Shown here: positions 4,957-57,652 of the stretch, piece after piece
Position numbering within the stretch: position 1 is the stretch's first letter
How the letters are laid out: every line of letters starts with the position of its first letter
Source of the DNA: Sphagnum compactum
Lineage: Eukaryota
DNA length: 64,000 nt
Direction: 5' to 3'
NCBI GenBank assembly: GCA_965153455.1
Contig: OZ234493.1
Location: 10,034,213-10,098,212, forward strand
Program-made: the position numbers and the translations under genes
The notes under the pieces: generated by a model
The model's database searches: none
Told to the model about the DNA's origin: nothing
Seen by the model: only the letters and a program-made list of their open reading frames with translations

Positions 4957-4960
<4 letters not shown>

Positions 4961-4992
<32 letters not shown>
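4961..4992. repeat. (CT)16 microsatellite followed by short (CA)n
   Basis: Directly visible. Confidence 0.95.
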
Positions 4993-4998
<6 letters not shown>

Positions 4999-11985: not shown

Positions 11986-12066
11986 TTGCTAAGAGAAAAA
12001 GATTGAAAAACTTTAGTAATATAATCAAACACAATAGACAATATGAAAACACATGTTATGAGAATT

Positions 12067-17413: not shown

Positions 17414-18162
17414 CTAGTGTGGCCTGTGCTGTTGGGTCAAGTGTGAACTTGTTATAATGTAAGGTGGACACAACATATGACATTATTTTGAAAGGAAATC
17501 ATGCTTGAATTGAATGATAAGCCTTCAAATGTTACCATGTTCTCAACTAGTTTTTCCTTCCGAAACCTGATTTTTTATTAAAAATTGAATTTTCAGTGAC
17601 AAAAATCACTGAAATTTTCATATTTCCAACATCCTAAGTCCAAATCTCACAACATAAATACCATTAAATCTGAATCATCAAGATCTTTCCAACAACACCA
17701 AAGGCACATCACAATTCCTTATACTTGAATTGAATGGTAGACATTCAAGTGTTACCACATCCTCAACTGAATTTTCCTTTCAAAACCTGGTTTTTTGGAA
17801 TTTATTTGAATTTTCAGCAACAGAAATCACCTGAAAATCAATATCTCCCATATTCTGAATCCAAATCTTACCGAATAAATTCCATTAAATCCTGCTCATC
17901 AAGATCTTTCCAATAACACCAAACGCACATTCCAACTCCTCTGAATTTTCCGCTATGATTTAGTTTAATTGAATTTTCAGTGAAGAAGTCATTCAATATT
18001 CATGAACTTTTGCACTGCAAGTCCAAACATCATGGAACCAAGCCCATGCACCCCTCCTCTTCCAGAGCTTTCGAAAGACACCAATAACACAATCTGAAGC
18101 ATCCCGGTTTGGTGGATCTCCTCGAAACAAAACAACACAAACTACCTTCCTTCATAGATAGA
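17414..18162 (-). mobile_element. Non-autonomous Helitron, copy 1
   Basis: On the minus strand the element starts A|TCTATCTATG and ends in a degenerate GC-rich hairpin GACCCAACAGCACAGGCC followed by ACACTAG|T. It lies between A and T with no TSD and has internal ~220-bp tandem subunits (17504, 17724). Confidence 0.8.
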
Positions 18163-18494
18163 TCCTCATTGAAGGAGTTGTGAGATATGGGTAAATAACT
18201 AACTGGCTTCAGACCAGGGCCGGCTTCTGATCAAACTCTGTTTTATTTTCAGAATTCAACAAATAGTGTCATAGGGCAAGGGTGCCAGACATGAGGGAAA
18301 CATGCAAAACAAGTATGATGCATGCAAATCAAGATAATGAATCTCAAGTAATTTCAAAACCTTATCCCTTTGGATAGCTACAAATTCCAACTTTTCCATC
18401 ATCTCATTAGCAAACTTCCTCCTCCCCACCACCACCACCTCCTTTTCAGACTTTTGTGCACCTGTTGTCTCTTATCATGTGCTTTTTGTGTAGA

Positions 18495-18942
18495 GTAGTG
18501 CAGCCCATGATGTTGCCCCAAGTGTGAACTGGTTACCCAATTGGTTCCCTTCCAAAACCATTTCTATGATTTAATTGAATTTCCAATGATGAAAACTACC
18601 CAAAATTCAATATCTCCCACATTCTAGTTCTAAAAATTTCCAATCCACCATTTATTAAACCCAACTCATTGAGGACTTTCTAACAGTACCGATAGCACGC
18701 CCAAATTCCTTTATAATTTTTAGTTTTGATGTAAATGAATTTAGAGTGAAAAAAAGAATTGTTCAATATTCAGTAACTTCTCCACATAGGTTGAAACATG
18801 ATGAAATCAACTGAGTGCACCCCTACTCATTGAGGGTGTTCTAACAGCAAGACCACAAGGAGAGGCACCAATGTTGGGGAGATCTCAATGTGACAAACAA
18901 AACAAGGCATCATAAACACGCTGGCCCTGCCAATAGATAAGA
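18495..18942 (-). mobile_element. Non-autonomous Helitron, copy 2
   Basis: Shares the CAAGTGTGAACT landmark and internal subunits with copy 1. Minus-strand 5' end A|TCTTATCTAT, 3' end GGGCTGCACTAC|T (degenerate CTAG). Confidence 0.7.
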
Positions 18943-20116
18943 TGTTGCACATCTATCTACTGTGTCCACACTCTCAACACCAAAAAAATCTGTTCCAATC
19001 TAAATAGTCTAAACACTTTCATAAAAGAAACCGGTTCACCTAATGTGAAACCGGTTCTAATAAGGTAAAACTTTCAAAAGTTGGATCCCTGTGGGGGCAG
19101 GGCCCAACAAACAAACAACCAACCTTCCTTTGTAGATAAACATGAACCCTAATACACTAGAAAAAGGTAAAGAAACCACTCCCATTATTGAACTGATGTT
19201 GGTGCTTTCTCCAATCTTTTGCCATTGACTACAACCCAATTTGTCACAAAGGTTAAATATACATGTAATTGCACCATGGATTGTTGTATTTAATTTTTTT
19301 TGGTGGGGGTAAAGGTGAATCCTACTGGAGGTATCATAGACACTACCTTTTCTCAAAGCCCAAAATGGCCTCCATCAAACAAACCTCAGATGACGATGAC
19401 TTCTTGTATCTTTGGTTTCAAACTTGAATCTGAATTTATAAACCAGCCCATTAAGATCAATTGGTCTGGTTCTCGGGTTTGAATGAACTAAAGCAGCAAA
19501 GGATTTCTCAATGCTTTGAACATGCCATATTAGGATGTGTGTGGCAAATTGAAACTCTAAGCTCACTTTTAAAACTGCATACAAATCACTTAACCCCAAA
19601 TCTAAAAAGCCTTTAACAAAGAATTATTTGATGCAGAAAAGGTCAAATGAATATATGTTGTAATATGTAGTTATATTAACTTTCCTATTGATTAAAGGTC
19701 GAGCTACAAAACATATAAAAGAAAATTACTTACTTTTAGACAATTACTAACCATTTACAATGATAAACCAATTAGGAAACTTTCTTTTTCCATTGGATTT
19801 GAGCAATTACACCCCCACCAAAGTCTTCAACTTGAAGAATTATATATCGCGTACACTGTTAGATCTTCTCTCTAATATCCTTTAATAAAATTTTCCAATG
19901 TAACAATCCAGGTATCAACTCAAAAAATAAAATTGTCCTTTGCTGGGGTGATGGAGATTTCCTGGGCGGACCAGTGTAAAGAATGCAATGGGTTAATACG
20001 AAAGTGGAACCAAATGCAATGACCCAGCTGATTCTTCCAATTTACTTTGGACAAAGAGTTGTGGAAAAGGGGTTAAGTGCCAGAAACAGATGAACTCTCC
20101 TCTGACCCTCGTCAAC

Positions 20117-20337: not shown

Positions 20338-20452
20338 CTCCTCAACATCCTGACCCCTAAGTTGCTGCCGGGCTCAGTCGTACCACAAGCTCTTGTTTCC
20401 ATGGACCGATTTCAGTAATCTTCAGTTTTTTCTTGGGCGCTTGTAGGAGATA

Positions 20453-23277
20453 ATGATGGAAATCTGCTCTGATTCAGATGATCAGCAGCAGATCTCTAAA
20501 CTAAGCGAAGATTATCAGCTAGCTAGCAGGATACGAAAAGCGGGAAAAAACGCCCGATTAGGGCTCGAAAAATCCAAACCGAGCTCCAAAGAAGGCAACG
20601 GCTCTTTTGTTTTCCCGCCCGAAAACGAGAAAGCTCCACTCTTCACGGATCGTCTCTCTGTTCCTCCCAAGCAATGGAGCAACGAAGCCCACGCCGCGCC
20701 GAGCTCCTCTCATCCGGAAAGCGACGAGAAGCAAGCTGCTGCAACGCCGGAGGGATCGGCGGCAACCAAAGAGAGGCGGAGGAGGCAATCCCCAGGCGGG
20801 AACGAGCAAGCTCGAACTGCCAGGAGCGATGGAGAGCTCGACGATGGAGGATCGCGGCGACCATCCCCGCCCGGAAGCCATCGCGAAGGTGCTCCGCAAC
20901 TCGTCAAGGAAGCTCCCGGAGCTTCGGACAGCACTCCTCGATCTCAGGTTCTTCCCCTTATCTCTGCTCCTCTCTCTCGCATTCCAGAGCTCTATTTTGC
21001 TGTGACGAGAAAAGGTCCGAGCTCGGAAGCCCGGGGAGCTGACGCCGAAAGGCGCTCAGCAAGAGGAGAGCTCCAAACCAAAAGACCGGTCCCAAGTGAG
21101 AGATCTCTTCCAGGAAGACAGTCGGAAACCTCTTCGGCCACTCCTCGAAACTCTGCTCTACCCACGCACCCGAGCAACGGACCAGGATCGATCATTCCCA
21201 CGGGAGCTGATCCCCAAGGTCCATCGCCAGTGGACCCGAACTTAGTTTTAGAAGCGGATTTCCCTTCCGAGTTGGTCTTAGAAATGCAGGGCGCGGCTGC
21301 TATGAAGGCGCGCAGAATTGTCATTGGACGGACTTTGGGTGGGAGAGCTTCATTCAAAGCTCTCCATGAATGCTTGAAACTCCATTTACCCTCCTCCTTT
21401 GTCTCTACCACGCTTCTGACGAAAGGGTATTTCTTAATCCTCTTCGACAAAGAAGAAGGCGCGATCGCCACCAGGAAGCTCACCACGGTTGATTAGAATG
21501 GACTCAATCTGTCCTTCTCCAAATTCTCCCCGGACTTTGATGCCAGCGCTCATGGATCCGAATCGCTCCTAACTCACTCAATTAAAGTCCAATTCCCGGA
21601 CTTGCACGAGCAGTTTAGGAATGCCAAAGCTCTCACAATCTTGGCCAACAAACTTGGGGAAGTGCTGGACATTGAGGCCGCCGACTCGTACATCAAAAGG
21701 CCGGCTGGCCCATGGTTATAGTGGAGGTGCAAGACATCACCAAACTAGCGGGTTACATCAGGATCCCGAGGATGGCAGAGGGAGCCGGCACCTCTAACGT
21801 CATTTTGCAAAAAATTCTCTACTCTGGTTTACCAAACCAGTGTAGAAAATGTCGTAAATTTGGGCATCACGCGCGTGCTTGCACCACCAACATGTTCAGG
21901 CCCCAAGAGGGGCAGGTGCAATCCAATCCCTCACGAAGAGAGAGCGCAGGAGGGGCCTCAGGTCCGAGCTCTGCTCCTCAGATCTCAGACAAGACAATCA
22001 AAACCAGGCAGCCCGAAAGCTTCTCTATTGATCCTCAGAGAAAAAATGGTGGATCCCAGAGAGATGGAGCATCTGAACCAGCAGGTCCCTCCCAGTTCCT
22101 TACACACACAGCCAGCCAGAACAACATCACTTTCGAGAGCCCGGTTCAGGCCTCTAGGCAAAGGAGCCCAGAAGGAAAGGAATCGAGGGATCAGGGGATG
22201 TCAGACATCCCTGACCACTTGACTGGCTCCAAGGTCAAGGCAGGCCTGGCAAAATAGCAACTCCCTTTCGGTCTCCCACAACAGGAAGATCGATAAAAAA
22301 AAACAAGAGAGGAAAACTCAAACCCCTTCGCCAGTCCAGGGGAGGGGAGAAGAGAGGTAGGAGGCATTAGCAGGTCCTCGGAGGATCCCTCGGAATGCTG
22401 GATCTTCAAGGCAAAAAAGGGGAACGCCCGAGCAACACCAAGACTGGTCGATCCACAGGCCCCCTCTCACACCCCACAAAGGGAGATCACTCCAGGGGGA
22501 AAGAGAGGCCCCCTGCACTCTGATGTGCACCAATCTTTCCTCTCCTCACTAGGAATCACTGTACCGCCAGGCAGAGAACCTTTCAGAGCCAGGCTCTGGC
22601 CGGTTATAACCAGGTACAAAAATGCACAGAAGGAGACGCTGATGCGCTTCAAAGAACACACCCCTCCAAGCCTGCCTCTGAACATCAGGCTCAAAGGGCC
22701 AGCAGAGGAGCTCGAGGAGGAATGGTCCACCGACGCTGCCTGGGGGGAACTCATTCACCAAGTGGAAGTTGAGCTGAAGGACCAAACTCTGAGATTCTAT
22801 CTCAGCATCAGCGAGAAACCACGGTTAGAATGGTCTTGGCAAGATGAGTCAAACAGGGGGGGGATGGAGTGCACCATCCTGGTATTCATCCACACTGGAT
22901 TAAAAGGTGTTAGTGTCCAAAAAAGGAAAAATCTACACTGGATCGCGCTGGACCACACTCCGGATCTGAACAATGAGGTAGCATTCACGGTCCCAGCACA
23001 CAACCTCCTCATGAGGAAGGGGGAAGTGGACTCGTCTCGTCAAGAACTAAGGAACAGATCGGCTAGCATCTAGGCATCGCCTCAGGCCGCAAAAAAGAAG
23101 CGCCTCACCAGACTCGACATGACGATTCTGATGAACCCTGAGGTTGACACCCTAATCTCAGCTCAAGAGGATCTTAAAGAGGGGAGTGAAGGTAGCAAAC
23201 TCCCGCTCACTTTTGTCACCAGCCCCCCGGGATCGATCAGCCAGCCGGCTGCCCGAAGCAGGCTGACTTATGTTTGA
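20453..23277 (+). pseudogene. LINE ORF1 (~940 codons): disordered N-terminus, DUF4283/RRM-like domain, CCHC zinc knuckle, extra C-terminal domain
   Basis: RRIVIGRTLG..KGYFLILFDKEE..IKVQFPDL..LANKLGEVLDIE (DUF4283-like); CRKCRKFGHHARAC = CX2CX4HX4C at 21841-21882. Lesions: TAG 21494, 1-nt deletion near 21710, TAG 22255, TAA 22294, TAG 23071. The frame stays open to TGA 23275-23277. Confidence 0.85.
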
Positions 23278-26200
23278 AAAGACACTTTCGCTGGTTTCCC
23301 TCAACGTAAGAGGGATGAGGGACAATAAGGCCAAACCCAAGCAGGTGAAGGCCTGGCTCACATCGCTGGAAACTCCTCCCCAGATCATTTTGCTTCAGGA
23401 GCACCACCTCGGGAAGGTGGAAGATAGGGACCCCGCCAGAGGGGTGGAATTCTGGCAGGGAGAGGCGTTCTGGAATGAAGGAATTCCCATGGGGCGCTCC
23501 CAGAGGACAAGGGCGGGCACAGCGATCCTGTTGGACAAAACTGTCGCCCCCTTCATCGTAGACCACGGCACCCTAGACGCGGGCCGCGCCCAGTTCATCA
23601 CACTGCAACCTCCAGGCGAGGGAGCGTTAACCATTATTAACGTTTATGTGCCTAACCTCTCCACAGATCGCGCCCAGCTCTGGCAAAAGGTGAGCCAGGC
23701 AAACCTCATCGCGGATCATTTCATTCTGGGAGGGGACCTCAACCATCAAGAGCCCTCGGAAGCCAGCAACTCTTCAGGCACGAGACAGCTAAGCAGGAGA
23801 GAGACTTCCGCTTGGCACCACATGACCCTCAAGTACAGGCTGTCCGATGCCTGGAAATTGGACAACTTTCACAAGCTCACAAAAAAAGCTTTCACATTCG
23901 ATAACGGCCAGCAGGGGTCTTCTTCTGCGCTGTCCCGCATTGACAAGTTCCTGGTCTCCCAATCGGTGGAGGAGAGAGGAGGGCGAATCGTGGCTTCCGC
24001 CTCGGTGAGGAAGCTCACGGATCACTCGCCACTCACCATCTCGATCTGGGGGACCCATCAGACTGAGCACGGCAACCGTCCGCGCTACTTCGACCTTTCA
24101 ATCCTAGGTGAGGAAAGGGGGAGAAAAGAACTGTGGGAGGCGTGGACTGGTGACCACCCCCCTCCCCTCACTCCCTCACAGAGCTTCGATTGGCCGGCCT
24201 GGCTAGAGGTAGCCACCGACAGAGTGATGTGATGCAATGCACGCCTCTCGAAAGAGAAAAAGCGTGCCCAGGGAGCTTACATTAGAGCTTGCTCCAAAAA
24301 GATACAACTGGCGGAAGTCTAGCTTCAAGCGGACCCAACCAACGCAGAGGTTCGGGACATCCTCTCTGACGCTCAGGAGAAGCTTGCAGACGTCTTCCAA
24401 AACTCCGTAGAGAGAAACCAGCATCTCTCTTCTTCCAGCTGGCTAAGGTATGGGGATACCTGCTCAAAAGCCTTCTTTGACTTCCATCGCATTGGGAAAA
24501 AGAAAACTCTCCTTCGGGAGCTTAAGACCGAGGAAGGAATAATCAGGGGTCAGAGCGATCTGGCTCTCTACGTTTCTGGTTTCTATGCCAAACTTTACAC
24601 CTCGGATGCCACGGCCCCTGGCATAAGGGAGGCCCAATAGGAATGTTGGAAAAGTGTCCCGGTCAAGGTCTCGCCAGCAATGAACGAGAGGCTTATCCAG
24701 GACCTCTCCCTCAAAGACATCACGGAAGCAATCAGAGCGCTCCCCAAAGGGAGGGCCCCAGGTCATGACGGCATTCCGATGGAATTCTTCCAGGAATTCG
24801 AAGCGGAGATCGCCCCAACGCTCCTTCACGCTTGCTCGGCAATGCTCAGAACGGGAGCTACTTCGCCCTTCATCAACAAAGGGATCATCACCCTTATTCC
24901 CAAATCCGGGGACAGGGCCAAGCTCAATAACTGGAGACCGATCACCCTCCTGGGAAGTCTCTATAAAATTCTGGCCAAGACCCTCGCTAGCAGGCTCCGT
25001 ATGGAGCTCACCGAGATTATCAGGTCTAACCAGACAGGCTTTGTGGAGGGCCGGAGCATATTGGATAATGTATTCATGGCCCAAGAGGGTCTCGGCTGGG
25101 CGGAAGAAAGCAACCAGGATCTGGTGCTTCTCCTCCTGGATTTTGAGAAAGCTTTTGATAGAATAGAATGGGGTTTCCTCTTTAGGGCCCTGGAGCAACT
25201 TGGTTTCAGTCAAACTTGGGTGCACTGGGTCACCTCCCTTTACCGAGAGGCCACCTCAACCATCAAAGTGAATGGGGTCCCTGGTCCTGTGTTCCAACTT
25301 GCGAGATCAGTGAGACAGGGATGCCCATTAGCTCCCTATCTCTTCATTCTCGCCACCGATGTCCTGGGGTACATGCTGGCCGACCCCAAGCATGGGGTCT
25401 TGCTTGGGGTCAAAGGCCTCACGCTCCCCAAAGGCGGTCTGACAATGGATCAGACTTTTGCCGATGACACGGCTCTTTACTTGCAGGGATCCCCGACAAA
25501 CCTAGATAGAGCTCAGGAGGTGCTCAGGATCTTCTGCCGCGCGTCAGGTGCCAAGGTCAATTGGAAGAAATCAGCGGCCATCTGGGCTAGCCAGAGAGAA
25601 AAAGCTTGGGTGTGGGGGGAAGAGGTGGGCCTAAAATGGATACCGAAAGGGAAAGGCACGAGGTACCTGGGGATCCAGGTGGGTTTCCACTTGCCCCCAG
25701 AGGCAAACTTTGACTCGATGATGCTTGCTCTCAAGAGCAAGCTCATCATCTGGAGCAACAACGCCCTCTCGTTGGCAGGAAGGATTCTGGTTGCGAACCA
25801 GGTCCTTTTCGCTTCGATATGGTACCTGGCCGCTTGCTGGAACCCGGATCCCAAGATGAGCAGCCAGGTCAGGGGGCTCATCAGAAACTTTATTTGGGGG
25901 GGTAAGGAGACGCCCACTCGCGCTAAGGTCAGGTGGGAAACGCTGGCGCTCCCAATAGCGCATGGAGGACTGGGGGTCACCGACCCCAAGTCCCAATCGG
26001 AGGCCTTGCTAGCGAAACTCCTGGTAAGAGGGTTGGCCCCCGGGGGGGAACCATGGAAGGAACTGGTCTGGCACAAAGCCGGCCAGACAAGACTCCCTCT
26101 CCACGGCAAGGGACCCTCCATCCCGAATCTGAACTGGCTCCTCGCGGCCCCTAAACTGAAACGCTTCAAGAGATCAATGTGGAAAAGCATCGTGGAAGCC

Positions 26201-27652
26201 TGGCTTAATGCGAGACCCGGACTGAGCAAATCAGATTCATCCTCTCCAGCCGAAATTCTTAGGCAGCCAATTTTTGGCAATCCGTCCATCCTCAATTCGA
26301 AAGGCATCCCGCTCGGGGTAGGGGGCCTGAAAGAAGGAAGCTCCTTCGCGAAGGCCGGATATACTCGAGTCAAGGATTTCTAGAATGAAAAGACCAGAGG
26401 GTGGAAAAGTCTCACAGGCCTTGGCATGAGCTATCACCTTTCCAACAGGGAATGCAGGGAGCTGATTACGAACAGTATTCCCTGGCGCCCGAATGAACAC
26501 GAAGACCACACTCGGATTGGCGACTGGATCGCCAACCCAACTCCCCCAACAGGCTGCCCGCTTGACTGGGTTTATCTGGTCCTCGCTAAGGATGGTGAAA
26601 CCGCCACGGTGCTCGAATTCCAAAGGACCACGCCCAGTGGGCGCATCCAGCTGACGACCAACCAGGCGCTCAGGATTTCCACTGCCAATTACCAGCCTAT
26701 CAGGGTGCTCTCTCAGGAAAACCCCAGGGCAATGTTCAAGGTTGCCAGGGTCCCTCCAGCACCGGGGAAAAAGGCTCTCATCTACTGGATCTACGACATC
26801 GGTTTCATTCAAAACCTACCCTGGGATCCGGGGGAATGGCACTGGTTACCTAACCCTCCCCTGGGCGACGCCCCCTTTTTTGGGTACTCGGCAAAAAGGG
26901 GCTACACCAACATACGCAAATCCATGCAAACATCGAGCATGGCTATCTTCCTCAATAACCTCAACCTAAGAAACACATCCACGGCCCAATTCACGGCCAG
27001 AATCTGGCATAACGCACGCCCACGAAAGGTGGGCACGCTCATCTGGCAGATTCTCAACAGAGGCCTCTCGGTCGGGACCTGGCTGCAAACGATGGGTCTT
27101 CCCTCGCTCTGCAAGGTGTGCGACGACAACAAGGAGGAATCTCTTCAGCACTGTCTCCTCGAGTGCCCCATGGCGCAACGCGCCTGGGAAGCCTACAAAC
27201 GTATCTGGTCGGAATGGCAAGCTCCTCACGATCTGGAAATCACGTGGCCTTTCGCGCTCCTGGGGGAACCGGTGATCGAACAAGAAGATGACCCCCCTGG
27301 GCTCCTCGCTTACCACACCGGCGGCTTCACCTATCCTAGACAACCTTTAGACATACTGCGTAGCTTCATTGTTTATCGCCTCTGGACTGAGAGATGCAGA
27401 AAACACTTTGATGATAAGTATTCCCTCAAAGTGACCTCCACCCAAGCCTGGGTGGCTACTGTTGAGGTCGGTATGGCTTCTTGGAAAGCTATTAGATCTC
27501 AGCGGCTCACCAAAGATCAGGACACTCAAACTAGCATCGAGTTTATCTTTAGAAAAGAATGGCTCCACAGGAGCATCATGGGGACGGACAACGCCACCAT
27601 CCGGTGGCATTTCCTCCCCCCCTTGTATTTCCTCCCCTTAATTAATGTTTGA
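23270..27652 (+). pseudogene. LINE ORF2 (~1460 codons): APE endonuclease, reverse transcriptase, zf-RVT; four in-frame stops
   Basis: APE motifs SLNVRG, LLQEHH, INVYVPN, GGDLN, SRIDKF, TDHSP. RT motifs APGHDG, NWRPITLL, LDFEKAFD, RQGCPLAP, FADD (25457-25468), YLG. zf-RVT CKVC..ESLQHCLLEC from 27110. ORFs 23270, 24680 and 26426 share one frame, interrupted by TGA 24230, TAG 24320, TAG 24638 and TAG 26381. Confidence 0.95.
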
Positions 27653-28399
27653 TGGGGCTGCTGCCTCCCTCCCCGCCTGGGGGTTCTTGCCCTAAGTTGT
27701 TGTCGGATTGAACCATGGAGGTGTGCATGATGGTACATGTACGCAGGAAACACTTTTTCAGTGTATTCCTGTCTCATAACTAACCACTGTGGTTAGATAC
27801 GTACCAACCAGCAACCCTTATCTACTTACCTAGTAGTCATCAAGTGTCTTACGTACTTACCTACATACATATTAGCCACATATAGGTCACTAATTATAAC
27901 CATGCATAGGCACCTATTTTACATACCTACTTATGTTTGATACTTACCCGCTTACATAGGGTGTTAGTCACGACTGAAGTGAACCAGCAGCCACCAGTTC
28001 AGGATGAGGCCGTTCAAACCGTTGAATCAAAAACACATCCTCTTCCCCTGCCCAAAGATTTTTCAGCCCTCTTCCCTGCCCCAAAATTTTCCCCTCCTAC
28101 CTACCTCAACCCCTCCCCACCTCCTACCTCCCTCCTACCTACCTCCGTCACCTCATTTCCTTCTCACTCCATCGTTAGAGCTCTCGAGCTTGAGTAGCTT
28201 AGAACTTTGAGGAGACGCGAGGCACAAGGCTTGAGGAAGGTGGAGAGCTCAATGTTGAAGGAACGCGAAGAGGAGAAGGCAAGAGGAGCTCTTTATCCCA
28301 AACGTAGAAGCAAGAGAAGAGAGGTAAACTCCCTCCCTTCTTTGCATTTTTTTTTCTTCTCTATGTTTTTTTTTCTCTATTTTTTTTTCCCTTCTGCTT

Positions 28400-28935
28400 G
28401 AGAAAAAGAAGACAATAGCAATGGCCATTGTCTTTTTTTTTCTTTTTTTTTGTTTCTGTTTGAAACAAAGATGATGGCATCAAGTTTACTGCTGTCACAT
28501 TTTTTTTTTCTTTTGCTATTGTTACTGCGAACAAGGCAATGATAGCAAGCTTGTTGTTGTCACCCATTTTTTTCTTATTTCTACTTGAAGCGAAAATGGG
28601 TGACAACAGTAAGCTTGTTGCTATTGCATCTTTTTTTTTTTTTTTTTTTTGTTGTTATGAGCACGGCAACGATAATAAGCTTGCTATCATTGCCCTTTTT
28701 TTGTTTTTCTGCTTGAAGGGAAAATGGGTGACGACAATAAGTTTGCTACCATCACATTTTGTTTTTCTTCTATTGTTGCTATTGTGAACGAGGCGATAAT
28801 AGCAAGTTTGCTACCATCACCCTTTTTTTTTTCTTTCTACTTGAAACAAAGAAGGTGATGGTAGTGATTGTCACCTTCTTCAAGTGTTTTGCTACAAAGA
28901 AGGCGATGACAACAAGCCGTCGCCTTTTTTCTTTT
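28400..28935. repeat. Degenerate ~60-65-bp tandem repeat in the first intron of the MULE cargo gene
   Basis: Units GACAA(T/C)AGCAAGCTTG(C/T)T..TCACC followed by a T-run, at about 28410, 28470, 28538, 28601, 28670, 28731, 28794 and 28905. Confidence 0.75.
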
Positions 28936-29035
28936 TTTCCTTCTCTAATCCTTTTGCTATGAAAAATTGTTAATTATTCATTAGAATTGACAATTAACAA
29001 TGATTTGGTGGTTTTTTTAAATGTTTAGGGTTATA

Positions 29036-30494
29036 ATGGTTAAAGGAAGGAAACCAAAGAAAATTGGTAGTGATTCGAAAGCTTAGAAGCAAAATGTTGC
29101 TTCATCATAATCGACAATTGGGGAGTAACATGTTGCTCCATCAAAACCAAGAGTTGATGAATCAAGCAATCCATGTGATTTAGAGTTGGCAATGGTGGTT
29201 GTTTGCAATTCAAATGATGAGATCCCGCCCAATATAGATTAGGAATTTCAATCGAAAAATGGTCAGTTAGATTGTTTTAAAATTCACATACATTAGATTA
29301 AATGCAGAAAAAAATTGTACAAAAAGATTTAAGTTTAATTATACCCACACCTTCCATCATTTGATGGAATGTGCAAGATTTTTTTTCAAAATCTTTTTAT
29401 TGTAATACTTAAAAGAGGTTAGAGTTTATAATAGTTGCATATGATTATGTGATATTATGTTTTGCAATACCTGCATTTTGTTGTGTGACCTTTTTATGTC
29501 TAAGGTTTTAAGGTTAGGGGTTTTTATTACAAAATAAAGACGTACTAATTTTTATAGTTTTTGGTTTAGGTCCAGAACTTGAAACCGACCAGACCTTTCA
29601 ACCATTGGCACCCCCTTGTCCACCTAATATGATTTGGAAGGATAAAAAATGGATGAAGGTTGGGTTGAAATGGAAGTGTAAAATTAACACTTACATTATC
29701 GCATATTATGCCAAATGGTTTTTGACCAATCATTTGAAAGAGGTGCATGGCTTAATGGTAAAAAAAGCAAAACTTAGGAAGCTTTCAAGTTCCAAAGGAG
29801 GTCCTCGACATCAAAATCATGCTAAAATGAACATTCACATCTTGGGAGATGCCATGGCCATGCGGAGGCAAAGTGATCAAAAGGTTGCTAGTTGCATTCG
29901 TGCCAAAACCTAACACGAGTGGGATAAATTGGTAATTGTTGCAGAACAATGTCCACCATTACCAAAACCAACTTTGGTCAAATTAACTTCAAAGCAATTG
30001 TTGCAAATGTTGGGTCTTAATGTTTAGGGCGTGGGAAACGTGCCTTGAATTATAACATCATGGATGGAGAAGGACGAAGATTTACAAAATATGATTCAAT
30101 CCACCCGTTCTACATACCTACAATGATTGAAAATGACATGGGATGTCAAAAATTGGGATCAAGAGTCCATTAAAGCAAATTGGACACAAGAGTTAACAGT
30201 TGTATTGGATTTCCATGAATCTAGAATGATTCATGGAAGGTAAGAAAAAATAATAATCAATGTTTGTTGTTTTTTTTATAATTTTGTTTCATCCAAGGTG
30301 TGTTAAGTTAGGGTTTAATTTGGTGGTTTTTGGGTGTTTACAGGGTTCAGGGCACAACAAAGGAGGAGTTTGTTACAAATGCAATTCATGTTGAAATGTA
30401 ACGCCGCCATCTATACATTGCTCATCATGCAACAAGGGCTACAAATGTGGCAATTGCTTACTAAACTAAACACAACATTGTAGATAGTGATATG
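29036..30494 (+). pseudogene. Spliced MULE-borne gene encoding a C2H2 zinc-finger protein of unknown function (decayed)
   Basis: Leader donor GAG|GTAAAC at 28324; exons 29029-29261 (ATG 29036), 29570-30239 and 30344-~30494 with GT-AG introns whose phases (1, then 2) join into one frame; branch-like TACTAAT at 29543. Motif C-x4-[Y, TAC from TGC?]-x3-Y-x5-L-x2-H-x4-H at 29677-29748. The in-frame stops are explicable by C>T/G>A. Confidence 0.7.
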
Positions 30495-30884
30495 GTTTAG
30501 GGTTTCCACTTTATATAGTTAGTTAAGTTTTTCAAACCTTCCATTTTTTGGACTACCCACTTTTTGAACTTTGGTCCTTTGATATTCTATAGAGAACCCT
30601 TTTTTCATTGGGTTCTTTAACATTTTTTGATCTATTCATTTTTGTACATCTTTTATCAATATAATTTTTTTTTCTAATCACACTTGTTTGATGGGTATAT
30701 GGTTAATCATATATGTCTTTTTTTTTAATCATCTTCTTAGTGCTTTAGACATAAGAATCAAAACTTAAATAATCCCATATGCACATTTTTAAATTAATTT
30801 GTTTAAGGTTTACAAAGGTCAAAATGAACATTATGTAATACCTACATCCTTTCTATTATAATTTCCATAAGGCCATTTCAAATA

Positions 30885-31110
30885 TGCAATAACCACATAT
30901 AGGTTTTGTAAATAGTTGTTGGTTTTTTTACATCCATTGTAATACCCGCATATAGGTTTCGTAAATAGTTGCAAGTTTTTTTACATCCATTGTAATACCC
31001 GCATATAAATCTAGTAGTTGATTTTTTTAACATGCATTATAGTATTTGCATATAGGTCCGTAAATAGTTGCTGATTTTTAATATCTTTTGCAATACTTGC
31101 ATATAGGTTT
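30885..31110 (+). repeat. ~50-bp tandem array containing AATACCCGCATATAGG
   Basis: Motif copies at 30888, 30941, 30994, 31041 and 31092. Confidence 0.85.
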
Positions 31111-31474
31111 TCATTGTAATATTTATTGGACTCATATGACATAATAATTTAATCTAAGTATCAACAAATAATGTCATAATTAAGGAATTATTAAAAGAAT
31201 ATTTCAGATAATGTAAATGATTGATTATCATATTTAAACAAACATTTATTGTTTAATATGAATTAATTGATTATTTGGTTGAACCTTCATTATTCAGATA
31301 ATTAAAATTTAGATCTAAAAATCAAATCAATAATTTGATATTTAACTTATTATCTTAATTATTTTTTTATGTTGATAAATTATTCAAATCATTATTTTAG
31401 ATAATTATTCATGATAATTAATTGTCATAAAATTAATTTAAGTATATAAAGAAACATATTTTGGGTACCCAAAC

Positions 31475-31760
31475 CACTTATTTTGAAATGACCTTACATG
31501 TGGGTATTGCATTTAAGGTTGATTCTTCACCTAAGGTTGTCTAAATCACCTATGGATTATTTCAAAATGAACTTGCATGCAAGTATTGCATATAGGCCTT
31601 AGTTTTCATTGAAAGGCCACCCAAACTACATATTGGTTATTTCGAAATGACCCTACATGTGGGTATTGCATTTAAGGTTGGGTCTAAAAATCAAGTTACC
31701 TAAATCACCTATTGGTTATATCAAAACAAACTTGAATATAGGTATTGCATTTAGGGCTAG
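31475..31760 (-). repeat. ~80-bp tandem array containing the same motif in the opposite orientation (CCTACATGTGGGTATTGCA)
   Basis: Copies at about 31493, 31573, 31652 and 31732. Confidence 0.8.
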
Positions 31761-33248
31761 GTATTCATATAATTTTGCAATACCCGCACACGTACTTAAT
31801 TTCTATTTACCAAATAGAAATTTTGCCTTAATTTTTTGAATAATTAAATAAAATTTGTAACAAAACACAAAAGAAGGTGTGTTTCTTACCACTTGATAAT
31901 ATTTCCAAGTTAAAGTTCTTTCGCTTTCTCTAAAAAAATATAAAATGACATTGCATTGTTTTACATGTGCTTAAGCCCTAAAAATTCTACCCAAAATGAA
32001 CTCAAGATTTATTTTAATTATTACAAACTTGTAAAAAAAATGTTAATTAATTTATATGTCCCAAACTCTAAATACTAACATTAAGTAGTAAAATTTACAT
32101 TAAACCCTAACCCCTTGTATCATCAATTTGACCAATTTTGCATTATATTCATTTTTATATATGTTAAATCATACTATAAGGTGAATAATTTTTTTTGAAA
32201 ACATTAATTTCATGACGTATTGGCAAGGAATCAAATATTTAGAAAATATTTTAATGTTTCATGGTTAATGAATTATCACAATATGATACGGGTATTGCAT
32301 TTAAACAAAAGTGGGTTAGGAAATATTGAACTTTAACAACTATGGAACATATGGAAACAAAGGAAATTCATAATTATGTTATAGACTTAAATAAGCGATA
32401 AGATCAAAAACCAATACAATGAGCAAAGTTTAAAGGATAAACCTTAAGCTTTGATATATATGAACCAAATTCCTAAACATTAAATCATAAGGCATAACCT
32501 TAAAAATCGAAATGATATTTTCCCATAAGCCCTATTACAACCTTAACTATACAAACCCTAACAAAAAAAGTCCTAGTGATATATGCCCTAAACCCAAAAA
32601 ACTATACAAAGTATACAAATTATATAATGAAAAACAAAAAAATTAAAAAAAACATAGGAAAAGATTTAGAAACCAAAATTTAAAGCTTTTAAACTACAAA
32701 GATTTTTTGACCGAAAAAAAACCTTAATCTTCAAAAACAATCAAATAAATTTTGTCAAAAACTAAAAGAAAAGATATGTCTGTTACCTTTGTGTGATCTC
32801 TCCGAACTAATTTTTCCACTCTCTTTGAAAAAGATATAGAATGAAATTGTATTACTTCACATGTGTTTAAACCCTAAAATTTCCCCCCCAAATTTAGCCT
32901 AGTTTAGTTTAATTACTATAGATTTGTGAAAAACTTGCTAACTAATTTATATGTCCCAACTTTAAACCTAAACCATAATCCAATAGTACATACATATAAT
33001 AATTACATGAAAAGATGTATTCTAATATCCATTCCATAAATAAGTTACATAAACAAAATTTAGTAAAATATGCATTAACTAAACTAAAATGGCTGTAATT
33101 ATGACATTATTTTTATTATAAATTGTTTGTAATACCTACATATGGGGACCTATTATAACCAAAAAGAAGGGTGAATAAAGAAAACCTTTTGGGCATAAGA
33201 AACTTTTAGTAGAAGCACAAATCCTAAGAATCAATTCCAACAACTTAC

Positions 33249-33937
33249 ATTCTTGAGATTGCAAACTTGGTGTTACTAGAACTTCCCTTGGTGTTACTAA
33301 TCTGTCATAACAAGATTCAACATTCTATGTGTGAATTGCCAACTGGCACATGCATGGTGATCTCTCATTAACTTGGTATAGTGGCATTAAACAATTTGCT
33401 GCCATGTACAAATCCATACGTTATAAATCAAAAATCTATTGAGGTATAGCTTGAGGTTAGAACCCTCAATGTTCAGTTAGTCCATATGAATTGTTAACCT
33501 TTCTCTTACAAATGCAACAATGCAGAAGAACAATTAAGTTCTTTATTTGATAAAACCTAATCTCAGAAACATCTTGATCTCCATGTATGGACCAAAGTAT
33601 GAGTGACATATACCAGGTTGATTTAAAACCACTCAAGAAAGACAGAGTTTTGTGTAGATATTGGCTATGGATAAATTTTTATTAACTTCCCACTTTTGTC
33701 CTATTTTCTCTCATTTTGCCCAACCCAAGGACACCCCACTGACGTTTCTGGCATTGACTCAGATACCTGCCATACTTTATGGATTAAAGAAAGATTCAAC
33801 AAAGGTCCCCATTCAAAATGCATACTCATCCCTCTACATGCCCCTTTTTCTACAGCTCGAACTTTTTTTTTCGTCATCAATCCTCAGCATCAACCCTTTA
33901 TAGAACCTATTCCTAACAAGTACATATTGCTTGCCAT
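33249..33937 (-). pseudogene. Possible second, convergent MULE-borne gene (heavily decayed, unknown function)
   Basis: Acceptor TATGCCAG at ~33948, ATG at 33937, then one ~230-codon frame ending at a GTAAGT donor (33248). About 15 stops, over half TGA (consistent with CGA decay). More GC-rich than the flanks. No domain recognised. Confidence 0.3.
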
Positions 33938-34399
33938 AATGTAGTCACTGGCATAACGGAAATCAGATACAAAATCTACTAATCTCAACAAGCCCAACCT
34001 ACCATCACCTGAAACTGATGAAGAAAGAAGAAAAAACTTGCCTACATTGTTTTCGAATTCTCCTTCTTATCTTGCCTTCCATCGTCCTATTATGCAAACC
34101 TCCATTCAATGCCGTAGCTTCCTTAGCCATACATAGCTTAGTGTCGATCTATTTTTCATAACACACAAACAAACTAGACTTCCTACCCATGCTCACAAGT
34201 TTTTTTGAAATAGTAATTGCTGCATCTAACAAATAGTGATGGAATAATTTTCGCCATTAACATGCGGATAGTTGACAGCCACTGAAAACAAAAACCCTAA
34301 ACCCTAAAAACTTGCCATGTTCACATGAGAACATTATCCGATTGCCTTCCTATCCGGTCACACTATGTTCATCATCCATGAACTAGGGTGAACCTCAAT

Positions 34400-35000
34400 A
34401 AATTGATAGGTAGGATTGGGGGGCTAGGGGGGTGGGAAAAGTGAGTAGGTAATTAGTTAGGTATTTGACTATGTAAAAAACATAGGTAGGTAGGTGAACA
34501 TAGTGGTAGGTAGGAAGGTGGGTGCATAGGTAGGTAGTTGGGTTAGTAGGCAAGTTAGTAAGTAGAAAGAAAGTTCAAGGAGCAAGGTAGATAGGTTACT
34601 AGGGTAGGTAGGCATGTAGGTAGGCAAATTAGTAGATAGAAAGAAAGTTACATTAGCAAGGTAGCTAGGTAGATAAGCAAGTTAGTACATAGGAAACAAG
34701 TTACCTTATCAAGGTGACTAGGTTTGTAGAGTACTTATGTCAATAGGGTGGTTGTGTATACAAGGTTGCTAAATAATAATGTAGCTAGGTCAATAGGGTA
34801 AGTAGTTAGTACAATGGTTAGGTCAGTAGGGTATGTAATTAACATGGTAGCTAGGTTAGTAGGGTAGGTAGTTAGTATAGTAGTTTGGTCAGTAAGATAA
34901 CTAGTTATTAGGATAGCTATGTGAGTAGGGGATAATTAGTAAGGTACCAAGGTTGGTACAATACTTATGAGGGTAGGAAGGTGAGTAGGGTAGATATGTG
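34400..35000. repeat. TAGG/GTAG-rich low-complexity subterminal region of the MULE
   Basis: Dense taggtagg/ggtagtag motifs, with a complementary CCTA-rich stretch near the other end (28090-28145). Confidence 0.8.
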
Positions 35001-38000
35001 TGAGGTCAGGTCCAGGGAGAAAACAAACAAGAACAAAGTTTTTAAAAAAAATACATTGGTTAGCAGCAAAAAGAAATGGACTATGATGAACCCCATCTGA
35101 TGCCGAATGAAAAAATGCAGCCCATCTAGTGGACAGAATGGCTAACTAGTGCATTGGTGGCTGCTGGTTCACTCTGGCCTTTTAGTCATTGCTTATGTAT
35201 TGTGAGGTGGAAGTAGAAGGCTTTACAGGATAGGTTACCAAGGTGAATAGTTGGTAATTCAGTTGCCGTTCATCCACAATTCAGTTGTGAAGAAACTGTA
35301 GAATGTTTTCTAATGTATGTACAGAGCACCTTATCTTTAGTAATTTTTTTGTCTCAATAGAGGATGGCACCTTACATGTAAGGCTCATCACTTTGAGAAC
35401 TTTACACATAAGGTGCCTTCTCTCCTCTCAAATGAGTCACATCCATTTGTTTATAAAAGTGAAATGCTATTGATTTTTTTTTGCTTGGTAAGCAAGTTGA
35501 AGGGAATTCTTCTGTGAATCCAGATGCCACACTAGGCTCCCACCTCACACGAGCCCTCATTCGCAGAGCAGCCCCCTTCTTTGTCCTTACCCTAAACAGA
35601 ACCAGTTTCCAACTGATGTTGCATGGGAGAGTGCTGGGTCACAGAATGCCCAAGTTATCTCCCCAGTTGTATAAGATGCATCTTCGAATTGACAGAAACA
35701 AGGGGTGTGTCACACTGTGGCCTTGCCATTTACATTTGTAAAAATGTATCTTAACGCAAAAAAAGAATTATTGAAACTCAAATATTTCACCATGCAAAAA
35801 TATAATCTTCAAAAAATCCTCTAAAAGAAACCAAAATCCTTCAAGATATTATAATAACTCTATAACTAATCTCAGGTTTCAAACAGAAGCCAAAATATCA
35901 TCTTTCAAAAATCCTCATATAAAAATAGACCTATTACCTAGGGATCAAATTCCCTTAAGCTACTATACTCTATAATGAGTTGAAACACGATATCCTTGCC
36001 TTGGTAAGAAAGGCCCCAAAAAAAAAGATGAAATAATATGTCCCATTGTCCTTCTCACCTATTTAAAGAGTCTTCCCTACCATCAAAAGTTCACGTTAAT
36101 ATTTTTGATACTGCAGTTGAGAGGTGTCCTTGAGCCTGGGACACATGAGAACAAAGCACTAAATATGCTGAGATGTACATATATCATCATGTCATGGAGA
36201 AAGTTGAAAGACTGTGGTGTACAGTCTCTGTATAAACATCATCATTTGCACCAAGACCCCATTTGTCAAATGCTTTCTAAAAACTTCTCCCCATCATCAC
36301 CTAGCTGGTCCCTCATAGGCTAGAGACTCTTGGTAGTTGGTTGGACAAGGCATATATCTCATAGGCTAGAAACTCTTGTTCTTTATTTCGACAAGGCATA
36401 TCTCTATTTTCCAAGTCCAATACATGAAGGTTCTTCAATCCCCTGAGGCCCCCTAACACTGCCTTTCTTGCTTGTCGTCTTGCGTTCTTCGCAGTTGGTC
36501 AAGCTTCTTTCGTGTTGACTCTTTTAGATCCTAGCTACTTGTGCACCTATGGCACACTTGGGTCTTCTATCCCTTGAGTCTCAAAGTCCTGATCACTTAG
36601 GACAGACTTAGACTTGCTACTTAGACTCGCTAGACTCTACTATTGAAGCTAAGTTTTAGTCTAACTCAAAGCCACCTCGGGCGCAACTCCCAAGGTTAGA
36701 CCACATGGCCATAAGCCAAATCAGCCCCAGGCTGATTCAGGGGCCTTTCGGGACCAACTCCCAGAGTTGGTTTAAAAGACTTAAGTTGGGACAACGAGGC
36801 CAACCCTCTCTCAGGATTTGGGCCTTGAAGCTTTGAAGGGACAGCTCCTAATCATCCCAAATATTTTAGTAGGCTCGCCCCCTTTGGGACAACCAAGGAC
36901 AATGCTTAATCATCCATTGAAGGTTTTAAGGGGATGGTGCCTTGCACCATAATCCCAAAGACAACCCTCAGTCATCTCCTTTGGCCGGCAAAGCTCATGT
37001 TTCGCCTTAGCCCATCCGAACCCCAAGGTCTAAACATCTCCCACTCCTAAAAAAGTTGAACCTCGCGAAGCCATTTCTAGCCTAACTCTCACACCGCCTT
37101 AGTGCCCCACTAAGGTGGTCTCGTATGAAGCTCGCATACACTTAAGACATCTTTTAAGCAAAAGGGCATGTCAACCCCACCCCCCCTCCCAACCTTTTTG
37201 ACCAATCTACAAGGTTTTGATTCCTTCATACCCTCCTCCAACACAACTATCACATTTCCCATTCATGCAGCTTTTGCCTTCATAAGTTTTGTCCAATAAG
37301 GTTTTCATAAAGGGAAAAAAAGGTGTTCAAAAGTTCATGTCTTACGTACCCCATTGTACTTGGGATATTGCTCTTTGTTCTTCAACAAAACTTTGACTAG
37401 AGGGGGGGGGGGAGAGGGAGAATCTTGATGCAAAATGATGGGAAGAAGTTGGGAGTGGGGACTTGGATTGGGGATGAATCCATTGTGATGGCTGAGAGAG
37501 TTAAGTATGTAAATGTGCTATCAAAGTTAGGTTTGATCAGCTCAAGTTTACAAAGCAAACTTTGCTTTGATTTTTTGCAACTTACACTGCACACTTAGAG
37601 CATCCCCACTAGTAGCTATATAATGACTAGTACACAATACTTTGGATGAAATATCGTCTTCAAATATGATGAAACTAAGTCTGAACCAATGTTCAACTGG
37701 TATTGACTGGTCCTGGTATCATGTGGGTTTTTTTTTTCTTCATCAATACCTGGGAACTGGTAGTGAGTAGTTTTCTTAAACTTTCATATCAGTCTCATTT
37801 TGGTAGTGTATTGTGACTCGTATTAATTAGTTGTGAGGACCCCCAAAGTTCAATTTTTTTCCTTTTGTGATGGGCCTATCACAAAAATATATTAATCAAG
37901 CTTTGTACAGTCCCAAAATAGATACCTCTATTGCGATCTCCTCCTTTGGGCAGCTCATATAGGTTACAAGAGTAGAACTCAGGGCAAAGGATATGGGATA

Positions 38001-41000: not shown

Positions 41001-41068
41001 AGCATGGAGTGTGGGTACTGGTTGAAGTACTTGATGTAAGGGTCAAAGTGTCATGGGCACGAAAATTA

Positions 41069-42380
41069 CACTAGAAGAAATGTTGTCCATTCCAACCCTA
41101 TGGTTGCAACTACCCGTACGACTAGTGTCCAAATCAACTAGTTTTGCGACTAATGGTAGCTCAATCCTATGTGTCAGTGTAGTTGCCTACCTACCTACAT
41201 ATTTGCTTACCTACTTACCTACCTACCTACCTACCTACCTACCTACCTATTTGCCTACCTACTTACCTACCTTCTCCATTGACTATATCTATTAAAATAA
41301 TGTTAAGGTATTCTAATTAGGCTAGACTTACTTATGTATTAGTGTTGGTTGGTTCTTTGATCTTTATAAAAAAATGTATTCGAATTTAAATTAAATTGTC
41401 TTAAATTAGTTGCATATTTACTTATTTTAGGGTAATTAAATATTTTATTTTGATATTTTCCTAAACTAAATAGTTACTTAAAGTTTAAATTCTATCTATG
41501 CTACTTAGCAACTTACTTAGATTAATTCCCTTGGAAGACTTAGAGTTTGGTACAATGTTTTCTCCCATTGAAATTTATCCCATATTCTTCGTCCACAAGT
41601 CCAATGTGAGGAAGTATTTAAGATGTGCAAGCATAAGCATCAACTGTACTCCTCATGAATAAGAGTAGCCAATTAAAAAGGCTAGTCCCCATTACCATAA
41701 ATAACATGTCTTAATTACAACCCTTGACCCTATCAAGCCTAAATAAGTAATGGTAGGTTTAGTAAGTACCTTCCTACCTATTTACCTATTTCATAGGTAG
41801 GTAGGTAGGTAGGTAGTAGGTAAGTAGATACCTACTTACTTACCTACTTGTGAGGTAGGTACTAACCCACCTACCTACCTATTATTCATTTGCCATGTGT
41901 CAAACCTTGTAATCAATATATGTTAATTTTCGAGTAAATTTCATAAATCAAATAGTTCCATGTGTCAAAATATTATTGCATGAAAGTGTATAATAAAATT
42001 GAATTAATTCAAAAATTTATAAATTATCATGTGGCTACATCATAATTGTCCAAGTTGCAATAGGTGGCACCATATGAGTCAATCACAAATGAAGTCGCAT
42101 AATCTTGCAACTACTAATGCCACATCAACCTAGTTAGAATAATAGTCGCATAGTCTTATGATTATATGTGCCATGTCAATGGATGAAAAATCCATTATAA
42201 TCGCAAGTAATATGTGACTATAGCTGCAACTAGTGTCCACTTGGACATTTTTTGCAACTACATGTATTTTGCCACTTGTCTAAGGCAACTGCACGATGGG
42301 CAATCGCATGTGTTCGTTGTGATTAAATATTTGTCTTCACGATTAAAATTATATCATTTATTTCCAAATTTCTTCTAGTG
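41069..42380. mobile_element. Non-autonomous CACTA (En/Spm) element
   Basis: Perfect 13-bp TIRs CACTAGAAGAAAT / ATTTCTTCTAGTG, 3-bp TSD TTA/CTA (one transition), subterminal GCAACTA/TAGTCGCA repeats, internal (CCTA)n at 41186-41271 and a TAGG/CCTA block at 41750-41880. Confidence 0.85.
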
Positions 42381-48185: not shown

Positions 48186-48254
48186 CATCCACAACTCAGT
48201 CATAATGGGTTTCCCATGGATGGTGCACTGGCGGCTGCTGGGTCGCATGGTCTC
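48186..48254 (-). mobile_element. Terminal fragment of a Mutator-like MITE
   Basis: Reverse complement of the first ~70 bp of the copies at 48271 and 57653. Confidence 0.65.
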
Positions 48255-48270
48255 AATTTGACATTAGTAT

Positions 48271-48603
48271 GGGCCACAGTGAACCAGCACCCACCAGAGC
48301 ACCATCCACTGGATGCCCATTATTACTCACTTGTGGATGAACCTCAACTGAGTTAATATTTGGTTTCACCTTGGTAACCAATTCTGTAGGAAATAGGTCT
48401 CATACATCGGTAGATAGGTAAGAAAATAGGTATTTACTAGGTAAGTAGATGGTTTATACATAGGTAAGGGCTGTTTTTACTACCTACCTAATAACAACCT
48501 GCTTGTGGGTTGTTGGTAGTAGGTAGAGAAAAATAAAAGGCAACTGAGATAACCACCATGGTTAGCTAACTGGAACCCAACAGAAAACTAACCATGGTGG
48601 TTA
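48271..48603 (+). mobile_element. Mutator-like MITE, right end missing
   Basis: Starts GGGCCACAGTGAACCAGCACCCACCAG and is colinear and closely similar to 57653-57965. No right TIR. Confidence 0.8.
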
Positions 48604-57084: not shown

Positions 57085-57652
57085 GTTTGGACTTTTAAAC
57101 ATGCATAAGTATAGTTCTCTCCAAAAGACCTAGTAAAGATATAAGACGTTGATTGCCCATACAATTGTGCCATTTAACTGATGTGCATTGTAAGCTGTCC
57201 AATATTTCATGTTCATATTGGATGGGTCGAGGAAATAACTGGCTTATATTTGATGTGACAGACACTGGTAGTGGCACAAATACTATTTGCAGGTGGATGT
57301 GCTTTTCATTTTCAGCAACAATGATAAAATGGCATGTATGTCAAATTTTGGATGAGGTAAGCATCACAATGGTGTGAAAATGCGTTTGCTCTTGTAAAGA
57401 TGTGCTGCAATAGTGAAGGTTTTAAAACTGATTTTAGTTGGCTAACATTAACGAGGGGCCACACATTTACCTAGTATTGATTATTGAGTCACAATAATTG
57501 ATTCCAAGCGGCATGTAAATGCTGCCTCAATGTATATTGTTCAATATTTGTTATTTGTCAGTGGAAGAGGGACGCACATTAACAGTAATTAAATTGGGAT
57601 GTGAGAAATTTATACTAATACGGTCTCAAAATGCATTTACATCACTAAAGTT

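Follow-up and report, generated by a model that had tools for sequence, protein, structure and literature searches.

A transposase-less Mutator-like element of Sphagnum compactum with a pseudogenised C2H2 zinc-finger gene and element-specific motif arrays

The stretch of Sphagnum compactum DNA analyzed here (the window: 64,000 nucleotides, contig OZ234493.1 of assembly GCA_965153455.1, positions 10,034,213 to 10,098,212 of the forward strand) contains a 7.2-kb Mutator-like element (MULE) at window positions 27971-35179. The element carries a gene with a single Cys2His2 (C2H2) zinc finger, and its central part holds arrays of a motif that, within the window, is confined to it. It is probably an old, immobile copy without a transposase, and its gene the pseudogenised member of a transposon family that would provide a DNA-binding accessory protein in intact copies. 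Comparison of sequences assigns this gene to the transposon family and not to the host. The evidence comprises the borders of the element, its insertion into an older member of its own family, the decay of its reading frame, and the properties of a large protein family in which no named gene was found.

Results

The 7.2-kb element

As proposed in the initial annotation, the element is bounded by terminal inverted repeats (TIRs) and a 9-bp target-site duplication. The TIR arms at 27978-28001 and 35150-35173 are 92% complementary over 24 nt, and one indel lets the match reach 27971 and 35179 (~30 bp). A match of eight in nine bases between the two duplication copies, TGTTAGTCA and TTTTAGTCA, has by our estimate a chance of ~1e-4 at fixed positions. 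An 18-nt core of the TIR, GTGAACCAGCAGCCACCA, is found six times in the window when up to three mismatches are allowed, where 0.04 occurrences are expected; four of these are extra to the element's own two ends and mark relatives of the family.

The absence of a recognizable transposase, also part of that annotation, was confirmed by a Pfam search of 27701-35401, translated in six frames with X in place of stop codons, in which no family reached E≤1. An autonomous partner with a MULE transposase, which had been envisaged as well, did not come to light in the window. The window contains 126 stop-to-stop open reading frames (ORFs) of at least 75 amino acids; with 46 ORFs of a long interspersed nuclear element (LINE) and seven of the element set aside, the remaining 73 yielded no transposase or other Pfam domain, only two sub-threshold chance matches, in a type of scan that misses pseudogenes split into shorter pieces. 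In the passages of PMC6446971 that bear on classification, MULE target duplications are 8-11 bp long and TIRs of hundreds of base pairs are called typical. The present duplication has the 9 bp usual for MULEs, TIRs are present though short, and a DDE transposase was found neither in the element nor elsewhere in the window. The Mutator-like assignment is reasonable because it draws on the 9-bp duplication and the TIRs, backed by the perfect 9-bp duplication of a miniature copy in the same window.

The flanks place the element inside an older miniature element of ~0.4 kb, which belongs to its own family and lies in the opposite orientation. When joined and reverse-complemented, they align to miniature-element positions 57-352 with a score of 127, whereas the best of 50 shuffles scored 58, and 35223-35285 correspond to positions 58-122 at 77% identity. 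Since the flanks rejoin as a continuous miniature-element match, the 7.2 kb moved as one unit, and from this single-unit arrival it follows that all DNA between the TIRs belongs to the element. A target preference may lie behind the self-nesting and clustering of the family. Besides the host element, the window holds one complete miniature element and two partial copies (Table 1); the family ends at 48256 and 48270 are 13 bp apart by alignment coordinates.

The zinc-finger gene

Exon 3 is the best supported part of the gene: tblastn with the relative P0004 recovers 29560-30240 at 66% identity (E=4e-97). The multi-exon structure with phase-consistent introns that had been described holds for junctions 2>3 and 3>4, which are GT-AG and in phase, so that 954 nt run in frame from ATG 29036 through exons 2, 3 and 4 with eight premature stops (four in exon 2 and four in exon 3). 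It does not hold for junction 1>2, as the frame of exon 1, read from ATG 28252, is shifted by one base relative to that of exon 2; exon 1 may be a 5' untranslated region. The frame of exon 3 reaches a TAA that forms part of the GTAAG donor; nearly all ORFs of full-length relatives stop at this TAA too, while P0006 reads on.

The finger of the window copy, C-KINT-Y-IIAY-YAKWF-L-TN-H-LKEV-H, follows the pattern C-x4-(Y)-x3-Y-x5-L-x2-H-x4-H, with a tyrosine at the position of the relatives' second cysteine. The family consensus is C-x4-C-x3-Y-x5-L-x2-H-x4-H (equal to C-x4-C-x12-H-x4-H), and the C2H2 finger recognized by the initial annotation is thereby supported. Judged from its reading frame, the window gene is a pseudogene and the copy is dead, several times over, because it combines eight premature stops with the replacement of the second zinc-binding cysteine.

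A word-indexed search returned 152 candidates, 124 of them near-full-length relatives that are 51-72% identical to the window copy; none of the 124 has a name beyond 'hypothetical protein' or a Pfam domain. A family profile built from 39 relatives was searched against 1.84 billion representatives and matched 392 of them at E≤1e-3, of which 146 had E≤1e-10 and 18 had E≤1e-30. The best 150 of the 392 are unnamed short ORFs of 42-232 aa, and no named host gene occurs among them or among the 124 relatives. No longer or fused protein of the family was found at E≤0.001 among 726 candidates of 399-2000 aa, in protein collections that hold single unspliced ORFs and in which a spliced fusion would not show. 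The relatives are evidently the raw ORFs of many decayed repeat copies. A protein-pattern scan revealed no relatives in bacterial or archaeal genomes. Matches to the TIR pattern at five loci in bacterial metagenome-assembled genomes were rejected as chance, since a 19-mer in which one position is two-fold should occur ~9 times on the two strands of 596 Gb. Neither the family nor any plant transposon that carries a C2H2 gene of this kind is described in the full-text literature searched, a coverage outside which Repbase and most subscription journals lie.

Among 271 proteins compared with P0004, identity ranges from 30% to 90%, and 49 fall below 50%. In these 49 divergent rows the zinc ligands are largely retained (C40 in 14/22, C45 in 21/23, H58 in 23/25, and H63 in 23/26), and across 167 columns the majority residue has a mean frequency of 0.52; further retained islands are HQDH..MN..IL.N, WGVGS.P, and AWD.K.W. 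In the young subfamily, the exon is 79.0% identical at the amino-acid level and the adjacent non-coding stretch, which happens to be open in the same frame in 23 of 39 rows, 76.6% (comparison over these 23 rows), which indicates that individual inserted copies decay neutrally. The coding constraint at issue in the initial annotation is therefore not seen among young copies and is suggested by the divergent ones. Only from this deeper comparison do we infer selection on the protein, which the lineage as a whole appears to have kept. Neutral decay of copies within a retained lineage is typical of genes that belong to the transposon itself, and the combination argues against a passive captured fragment.

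The finger belongs to the classical C2H2 type, as indicated by the consensus, which falls within the pattern C-x2-4-C-x12-H-x3-5-H and has its conserved aromatic and Leu positions, by the modeled hairpin and helix, and the match of the divergent member P0159 to the TFIIIA fingers of 1tf3 (E=8e-6); P0159 also matches ZNF410, GLI, and YY1. For the Pfam family zf-C2H2 (PF00096) the best score is 17.3 bits (P0159), below the gathering cut-off of 25.2, and neither P0004 nor the window copy matches it. No Pfam family reaches its threshold for the window protein, the six frames, or the intact relatives.

A first structural model, from a shallow alignment, was too poor for use (mean predicted local distance difference test, pLDDT, of 52.4). 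The AlphaFold2 model from 74 sequences, divergent fragments included, has a mean pLDDT of 72.4 and a predicted template modeling score (pTM) of 0.33. It places the finger at residues 30-63 (strands 30-34 and 37-42, helix 47-63) and a long helix at 87-130, with a block of pLDDT 91-96 over 91-130, as well as further helices. As modeled, the protein is an orphan with one C2H2 finger, a basic linker, a helix of ~45 residues, and a helical C-terminal part. The stretch after the finger, previously reported as unassignable, indeed comprises ~170 helical residues for which Foldseek matched no solved fold: none of 47 PDB matches at E≤10 reached E≤0.001. A sequence profile search of the PDB gave one chance match (E=2), and in the ESM Atlas nothing with a name resembled the protein at ≥0.9, the only leads being weak ones to C2H2 clusters at 0.83-0.85. 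A complex prediction for two copies of residues 25-135 scored 0.00 in a run without controls and without the family alignment, and this score carries no weight for or against dimerization.

Repeated motifs

The arrays in the center of the element share a ~20-bp core, TGYAATACCCRCATRTAGG, which occurs once per unit or half-unit, on the plus strand in the first array and on the minus strand in the second. All nine window matches of KYAATACYYRCAT lie inside the element, between 29464 and 33141 (six on the plus and three on the minus strand, against 0.09 expected), as do all ten matches of GCAATACCCGCAT at ≤2 mismatches. Weaker ones included, there are ~14 motif copies of 13-20 bp, which within the window are confined to the element. 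The tandem arrays of one ~16-bp motif described earlier are real and element-specific, but they are not a simple 16-bp tandem: the repeated units measure 53 bp (4.4 copies at 30888-31110) and 159 bp.

One copy of the motif, GCAATACCTGCAT, lies in the intron before exon 3 and is kept in relatives, since most of the 23 of 39 rows that include the upstream stretch read ..FCNTCI.. near the start of the ORF. The variants CCCG, CCTG, CTTG, CCCA, and CCTA within the core look like decay of one CG. Its 3' half, CATATAGGT, resembles the ATAGGT/TAGGTA repeats of the miniature elements and of the right subterminal 600 bp; TAGGTA occurs 12 times within 34001-35000.

A second, palindromic motif of AAGCTT type, ARYAAGYTTGYT (the AGCAAGCTTGCT array), was absent from the initial annotation. 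It forms the center of each inverted half-unit and occurs in five copies spaced 62-66 bp apart at 28544-28812. Its window matches number seven against 0.31 expected, six of them in the palindromic array, with one site counted on both strands.

The forward and reverse arrays also face each other, for example at 31089-31121 and 31558-31590 (33 nt, 76%), so that a transcript reading through both could form a long, imperfect hairpin from which small RNAs might arise. A 235-bp direct repeat (31839-32072 and 32736-32966, 73% identity, 895 bp apart) in the AT-rich middle may have originated by segmental duplication or may mark where a small nested insertion begins and ends.

Genomic context

The window has a GC content of 0.37 and is AT-rich, plant-type eukaryotic DNA with GT-AG introns and T-rich tracts; a short telomere-like stretch of plant type lies at ~34285-34300. 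No Rfam match was found in the whole window. The ratio of observed to expected CpG is 0.34 in the element, 0.34 in the whole window, 0.63 in the LINE, and 0.21-0.23 in the remaining window outside the LINE. Regions 1-20000 and 35400-64000, with this low ratio and no Pfam domain in any stop-to-stop ORF of at least 75 amino acids, are gene-poor and strongly decayed repeat DNA. The LINE encodes a CCHC knuckle (ORF1), AP-endonuclease, RVT_1, and zf-RVT domains, and its CpG ratio, far above that of the surroundings, marks it as much younger. Its 3' end adjoins the host miniature element, which is truncated there, at ~27708. A dense TACCTA/TAGGTA tract at 41190-41292 (19 and 7 copies within 41001-42000) shares ~72-77% identity over 61-88 nt with the element's right subterminal repeats; either a simple repeat or a piece of another member of the family may be present here. 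Table 1 lists the features of the element and its surroundings.

Table 1. Features of the Mutator-like element, its relatives, and the neighboring LINE, in window coordinates.
Feature	Position	Strand	Description
LINE	20447-27652	+	GC 0.54; long open frames
Host miniature element, left half	27708-27970	-	Older, same family
Left target-site duplication	27962-27970		TGTTAGTCA; 8/9 bases identical to right copy
7.2-kb Mutator-like element	27971-35179		TIRs and 9-bp target duplication
Left TIR	27971-28001	+	
Left subterminal short repeats	28093-28146	+	CCTACC type; complement of right-end GGTAGG repeats
Putative exon 1	28252-28323	+	24 codons, basic; GT donor at 28324; without outside support
Palindromic array	28495-28845		127-bp unit, 2.7 copies; inverted half-units with T-runs; between putative exons 1 and 2
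Putative exon 2	29029-29261	+	ATG 29036; 4 in-frame stops; without outside support
Single motif copy GCAATACCTGCAT	29464-29476	+	~100 bp upstream of exon 3, in intron
Exon 3	29570-30239	+	Finger and ~170 helical residues; 4 premature stops
Putative short last exon (4)	30344-30401	+	19 codons and stop; in phase with exon 3; without outside support
Forward array	30835-31110	+	Core TGYAATACCCRCATRTAGG in each unit
Reverse array	31478-31768	-	159-bp unit, 1.8 copies, two ~80-bp half-units each; same core on minus strand
AT-rich middle	31777-33141		Isolated motif copies at 31777 (+), 32286 (-), 33129 (+)
Unique right-hand region	33150-34400		GC 0.37; no coding remnant detectable on either strand
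Right subterminal repeats	34400-35000	+	33-, 53-, and 66-bp units, rich in TAGGTA/GGTAGG
Right TIR	35150-35179	-	
Right target-site duplication	35180-35188		TTTTAGTCA; 8/9 bases identical to left copy
Host miniature element, right half	35189-35285	-	Same family
Right end of another copy	48186-48256	-	Directly before the copy at 48270-48589
Second miniature-type copy	48270-48589	+	87% identity; without right end
Miniature element, 378 bp	57650-58027	+	33-nt TIRs (97%); perfect 9-bp duplication ACTAAAGTT

Discussion

Several known transposons resemble the element in part. VANDALs are non-TIR MULEs. VANDAL21 (Hiun) of Arabidopsis is, like the present element, a member of the Mutator superfamily with an accessory gene, whose product VANC21 is described in PMC5735166 as binding a 9-bp motif; the non-coding parts of VANDAL21, among them the intron of the VANC21 gene, are enriched in this motif, which is multiplied as tandem repeats arrayed in the same orientation; a figure legend of that paper gives DUF1985 and DUF287 as VANC domains. 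The present protein is instead of C2H2 type without VANC domains, and its element has TIRs, arrays in both orientations, and a dead copy of the gene.

The CACTA superfamily generates a 3-bp target duplication, and the target motif of TnpA is short, subterminal, and repeated in both orientations in its element. TnpA of En/Spm, presented as a transposon-encoded regulator in 10.64898/2026.08.24.746577, can be compared by description as a sequence-specific regulator with a repeated both-orientation motif, although it belongs to another superfamily and its targets are subterminal, whereas the main arrays here are central. Closer in superfamily are Mutyl with mutB (Yarrowia), Spectre (aphids), and MuDR with mudrB (maize), Mutator-like elements with an extra ORF; compared by description, they differ in their hosts (fungi, insects, and maize) and in retaining a transposase. 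MULEs with a C2H2 second ORF are already known in Spectre and Mutyl, and the relevant section of PMC6446971 says that mutB binds DNA and gives Spectre 74-bp TIRs and an 8-bp duplication. Pack-MULEs resemble the present element as transposase-less MULEs with intron-bearing, gene-like sequence; they differ in that no parental host gene was found here and that the present gene has a large and old family, all of whose members are unnamed ORFs of repeat type.

That the intact protein binds DNA, which target it chooses, and whether it affects transposition or methylation are matters of inference. It would act as a sequence-specific, DNA-binding accessory factor that reads short motifs multiplied in the element. 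Its candidate targets are the copies of the ~20-bp core, both those of the central arrays and the one in the intron preceding exon 3; the upstream palindromic array or the TAGGTA subterminal repeats may be further ones. Once bound, the protein would regulate the element's own transcription or help to assemble the transposition complex, and anti-silencing of the VANC kind would be one possible outcome of such binding. By analogy with TnpA and Mutyl mutB, a self-regulatory or transposition-cofactor role is favored.

Several observations weigh against this interpretation. The linkage of gene and TIRs is known from the single window copy, and of the exons only exon 3 is backed by relatives, no outside sequence supporting exons 1, 2, and 4. 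Copies of the young subfamily conserve the exon no better than the stretch beside it. No autonomous partner was seen in the window, so the superfamily call draws solely on the TIRs and the length of the duplication; for plant MULEs, TIRs of ~30 bp are short and GGCCAC... ends atypical. The arrays could be plain internal satellites, and the likeness of CATATAGGT to the subterminal repeats means that they may be transposase sites or derivatives of those repeats. Moreover, a single finger reads ~3 bp and alone cannot specify a 20-bp core.

Among the alternatives, the finger-plus-helix exon might be the N-terminal DNA-binding part of the family transposase, or of a regulator derived from it, with the catalytic exons lost by internal deletion in this copy. 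All relatives have a GT donor at the end of exon 3, so that further exons may follow in autonomous copies, and a spliced transposase fusion would be invisible in single-ORF protein collections. Table 1 of PMC6446971 lists some MULE transposases with C2H2 fingers, and the preprint 10.64898/2026.08.24.746577 states that TnpA evolved from a transposase. Such a history would also fit the presence of the unexplained region 33150-34400. It is nevertheless unlikely: the six-frame Pfam search detected no transposase remnant in the element, the search for longer proteins among the 726 candidates was negative, the best 150 of 392 representatives are all ≤232 aa, and in the window exon 3 is followed by a short, in-phase last exon with a stop.

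The possibility that the initial annotation had put forward, a VANC-like anti-silencing module in which a C2H2 protein independent of VANC binds its own arrays and causes sequence-specific loss of DNA methylation as VANC does in VANDAL elements, has only the layout in its favor. A C2H2 gene does accompany element-specific arrays, and the layout is alike, with the motif in tandem units and in the intron before exon 3; an ancestral CG in the core, decayed to TG/CA in most copies, implies that the sites were methylatable. However, neither the window translation nor the intact relatives match DUF1985 or DUF287 in Pfam, even at E≤10, the arrays lie on both strands, unlike the VANC21 motifs, and TIRs are present. 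The CpG ratio of the element is no higher than that of the whole window, which indicates that this copy has long been methylated like its neighbors. The analogy is therefore one of layout, and a VANC-like function is quite improbable. The capture of a host-gene fragment without a role for the transposon (Pack-MULE), the other option raised at the outset, is disfavored. An element without a transposase but with a gene-like, intron-bearing insert would fit it, as would the young-subfamily exon, whose rate of change is no lower than that of the non-coding DNA beside it. Against it stand the lack of a parental or named host gene in the 124 relatives or the best 150 of 392 representatives, the copy of the array motif in the gene's own intron, and the spread of 30-90% identity, in which members at 30-50% keep their zinc ligands and islands, as fits long residence in active transposon lineages. 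Capture thus appears very improbable.

A further, very improbable proposal is that the orphan C2H2 protein oligomerizes through its long helix to read the ~20-bp core, which would constitute a self-targeting system for anti-silencing or self-activation with an origin separate from VANC and TnpA. Its bolder form adds, in some copies, an adjacent or fused TET/JBP-like dioxygenase exon, suggested by the relative P0130. In this protein, 48 unusual residues replace the usual upstream stretch; they resemble the last strands of 2OG-Fe(II) dioxygenases, are in frame with exon 3, and give sub-threshold Pfam matches to 2OG-FeII_Oxy_5 (E=0.0067) and the Tet-like PF20515 (E=0.16). P0272-P0276 are relatives of P0130 without the finger part and form a small repeated ORF family of 78-83% identity, in which P0272 matches PF20515 (E=0.031) and Tet_JBP (E=0.08), again below threshold. 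An Atlas cluster with Tet_JBP in 11% of its members scored 0.88. A tblastn search of the window with the 2OG-like piece of P0130 returned nothing below E=1. The P0130 junction could represent a TET/JBP-like exon linked to the transposon family or a chance rearrangement. Transposons carrying TET/JBP-like dioxygenases are described for fungi in PMC12730594. If both components were linked in one element, this would be a plant transposon with a targeting protein and a demethylating enzyme.

Conclusions

The window copy itself is a dead relic without functional weight, and its value lies in the family it represents. For annotation, the gain is a transposon family with defined termini, a 9-bp duplication, miniature derivatives, and an accessory gene, and further study can draw on defined DNA motifs and on an intact protein of the kind encoded by P0004-type ORFs. 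Accessory genes of DNA transposons are few, and TnpA, mudrB, and VANC illustrate self-regulation and escape from silencing. A large, unnamed family of single-finger C2H2 proteins, together with an element-specific motif, is a candidate for a further self-regulating system of this kind.

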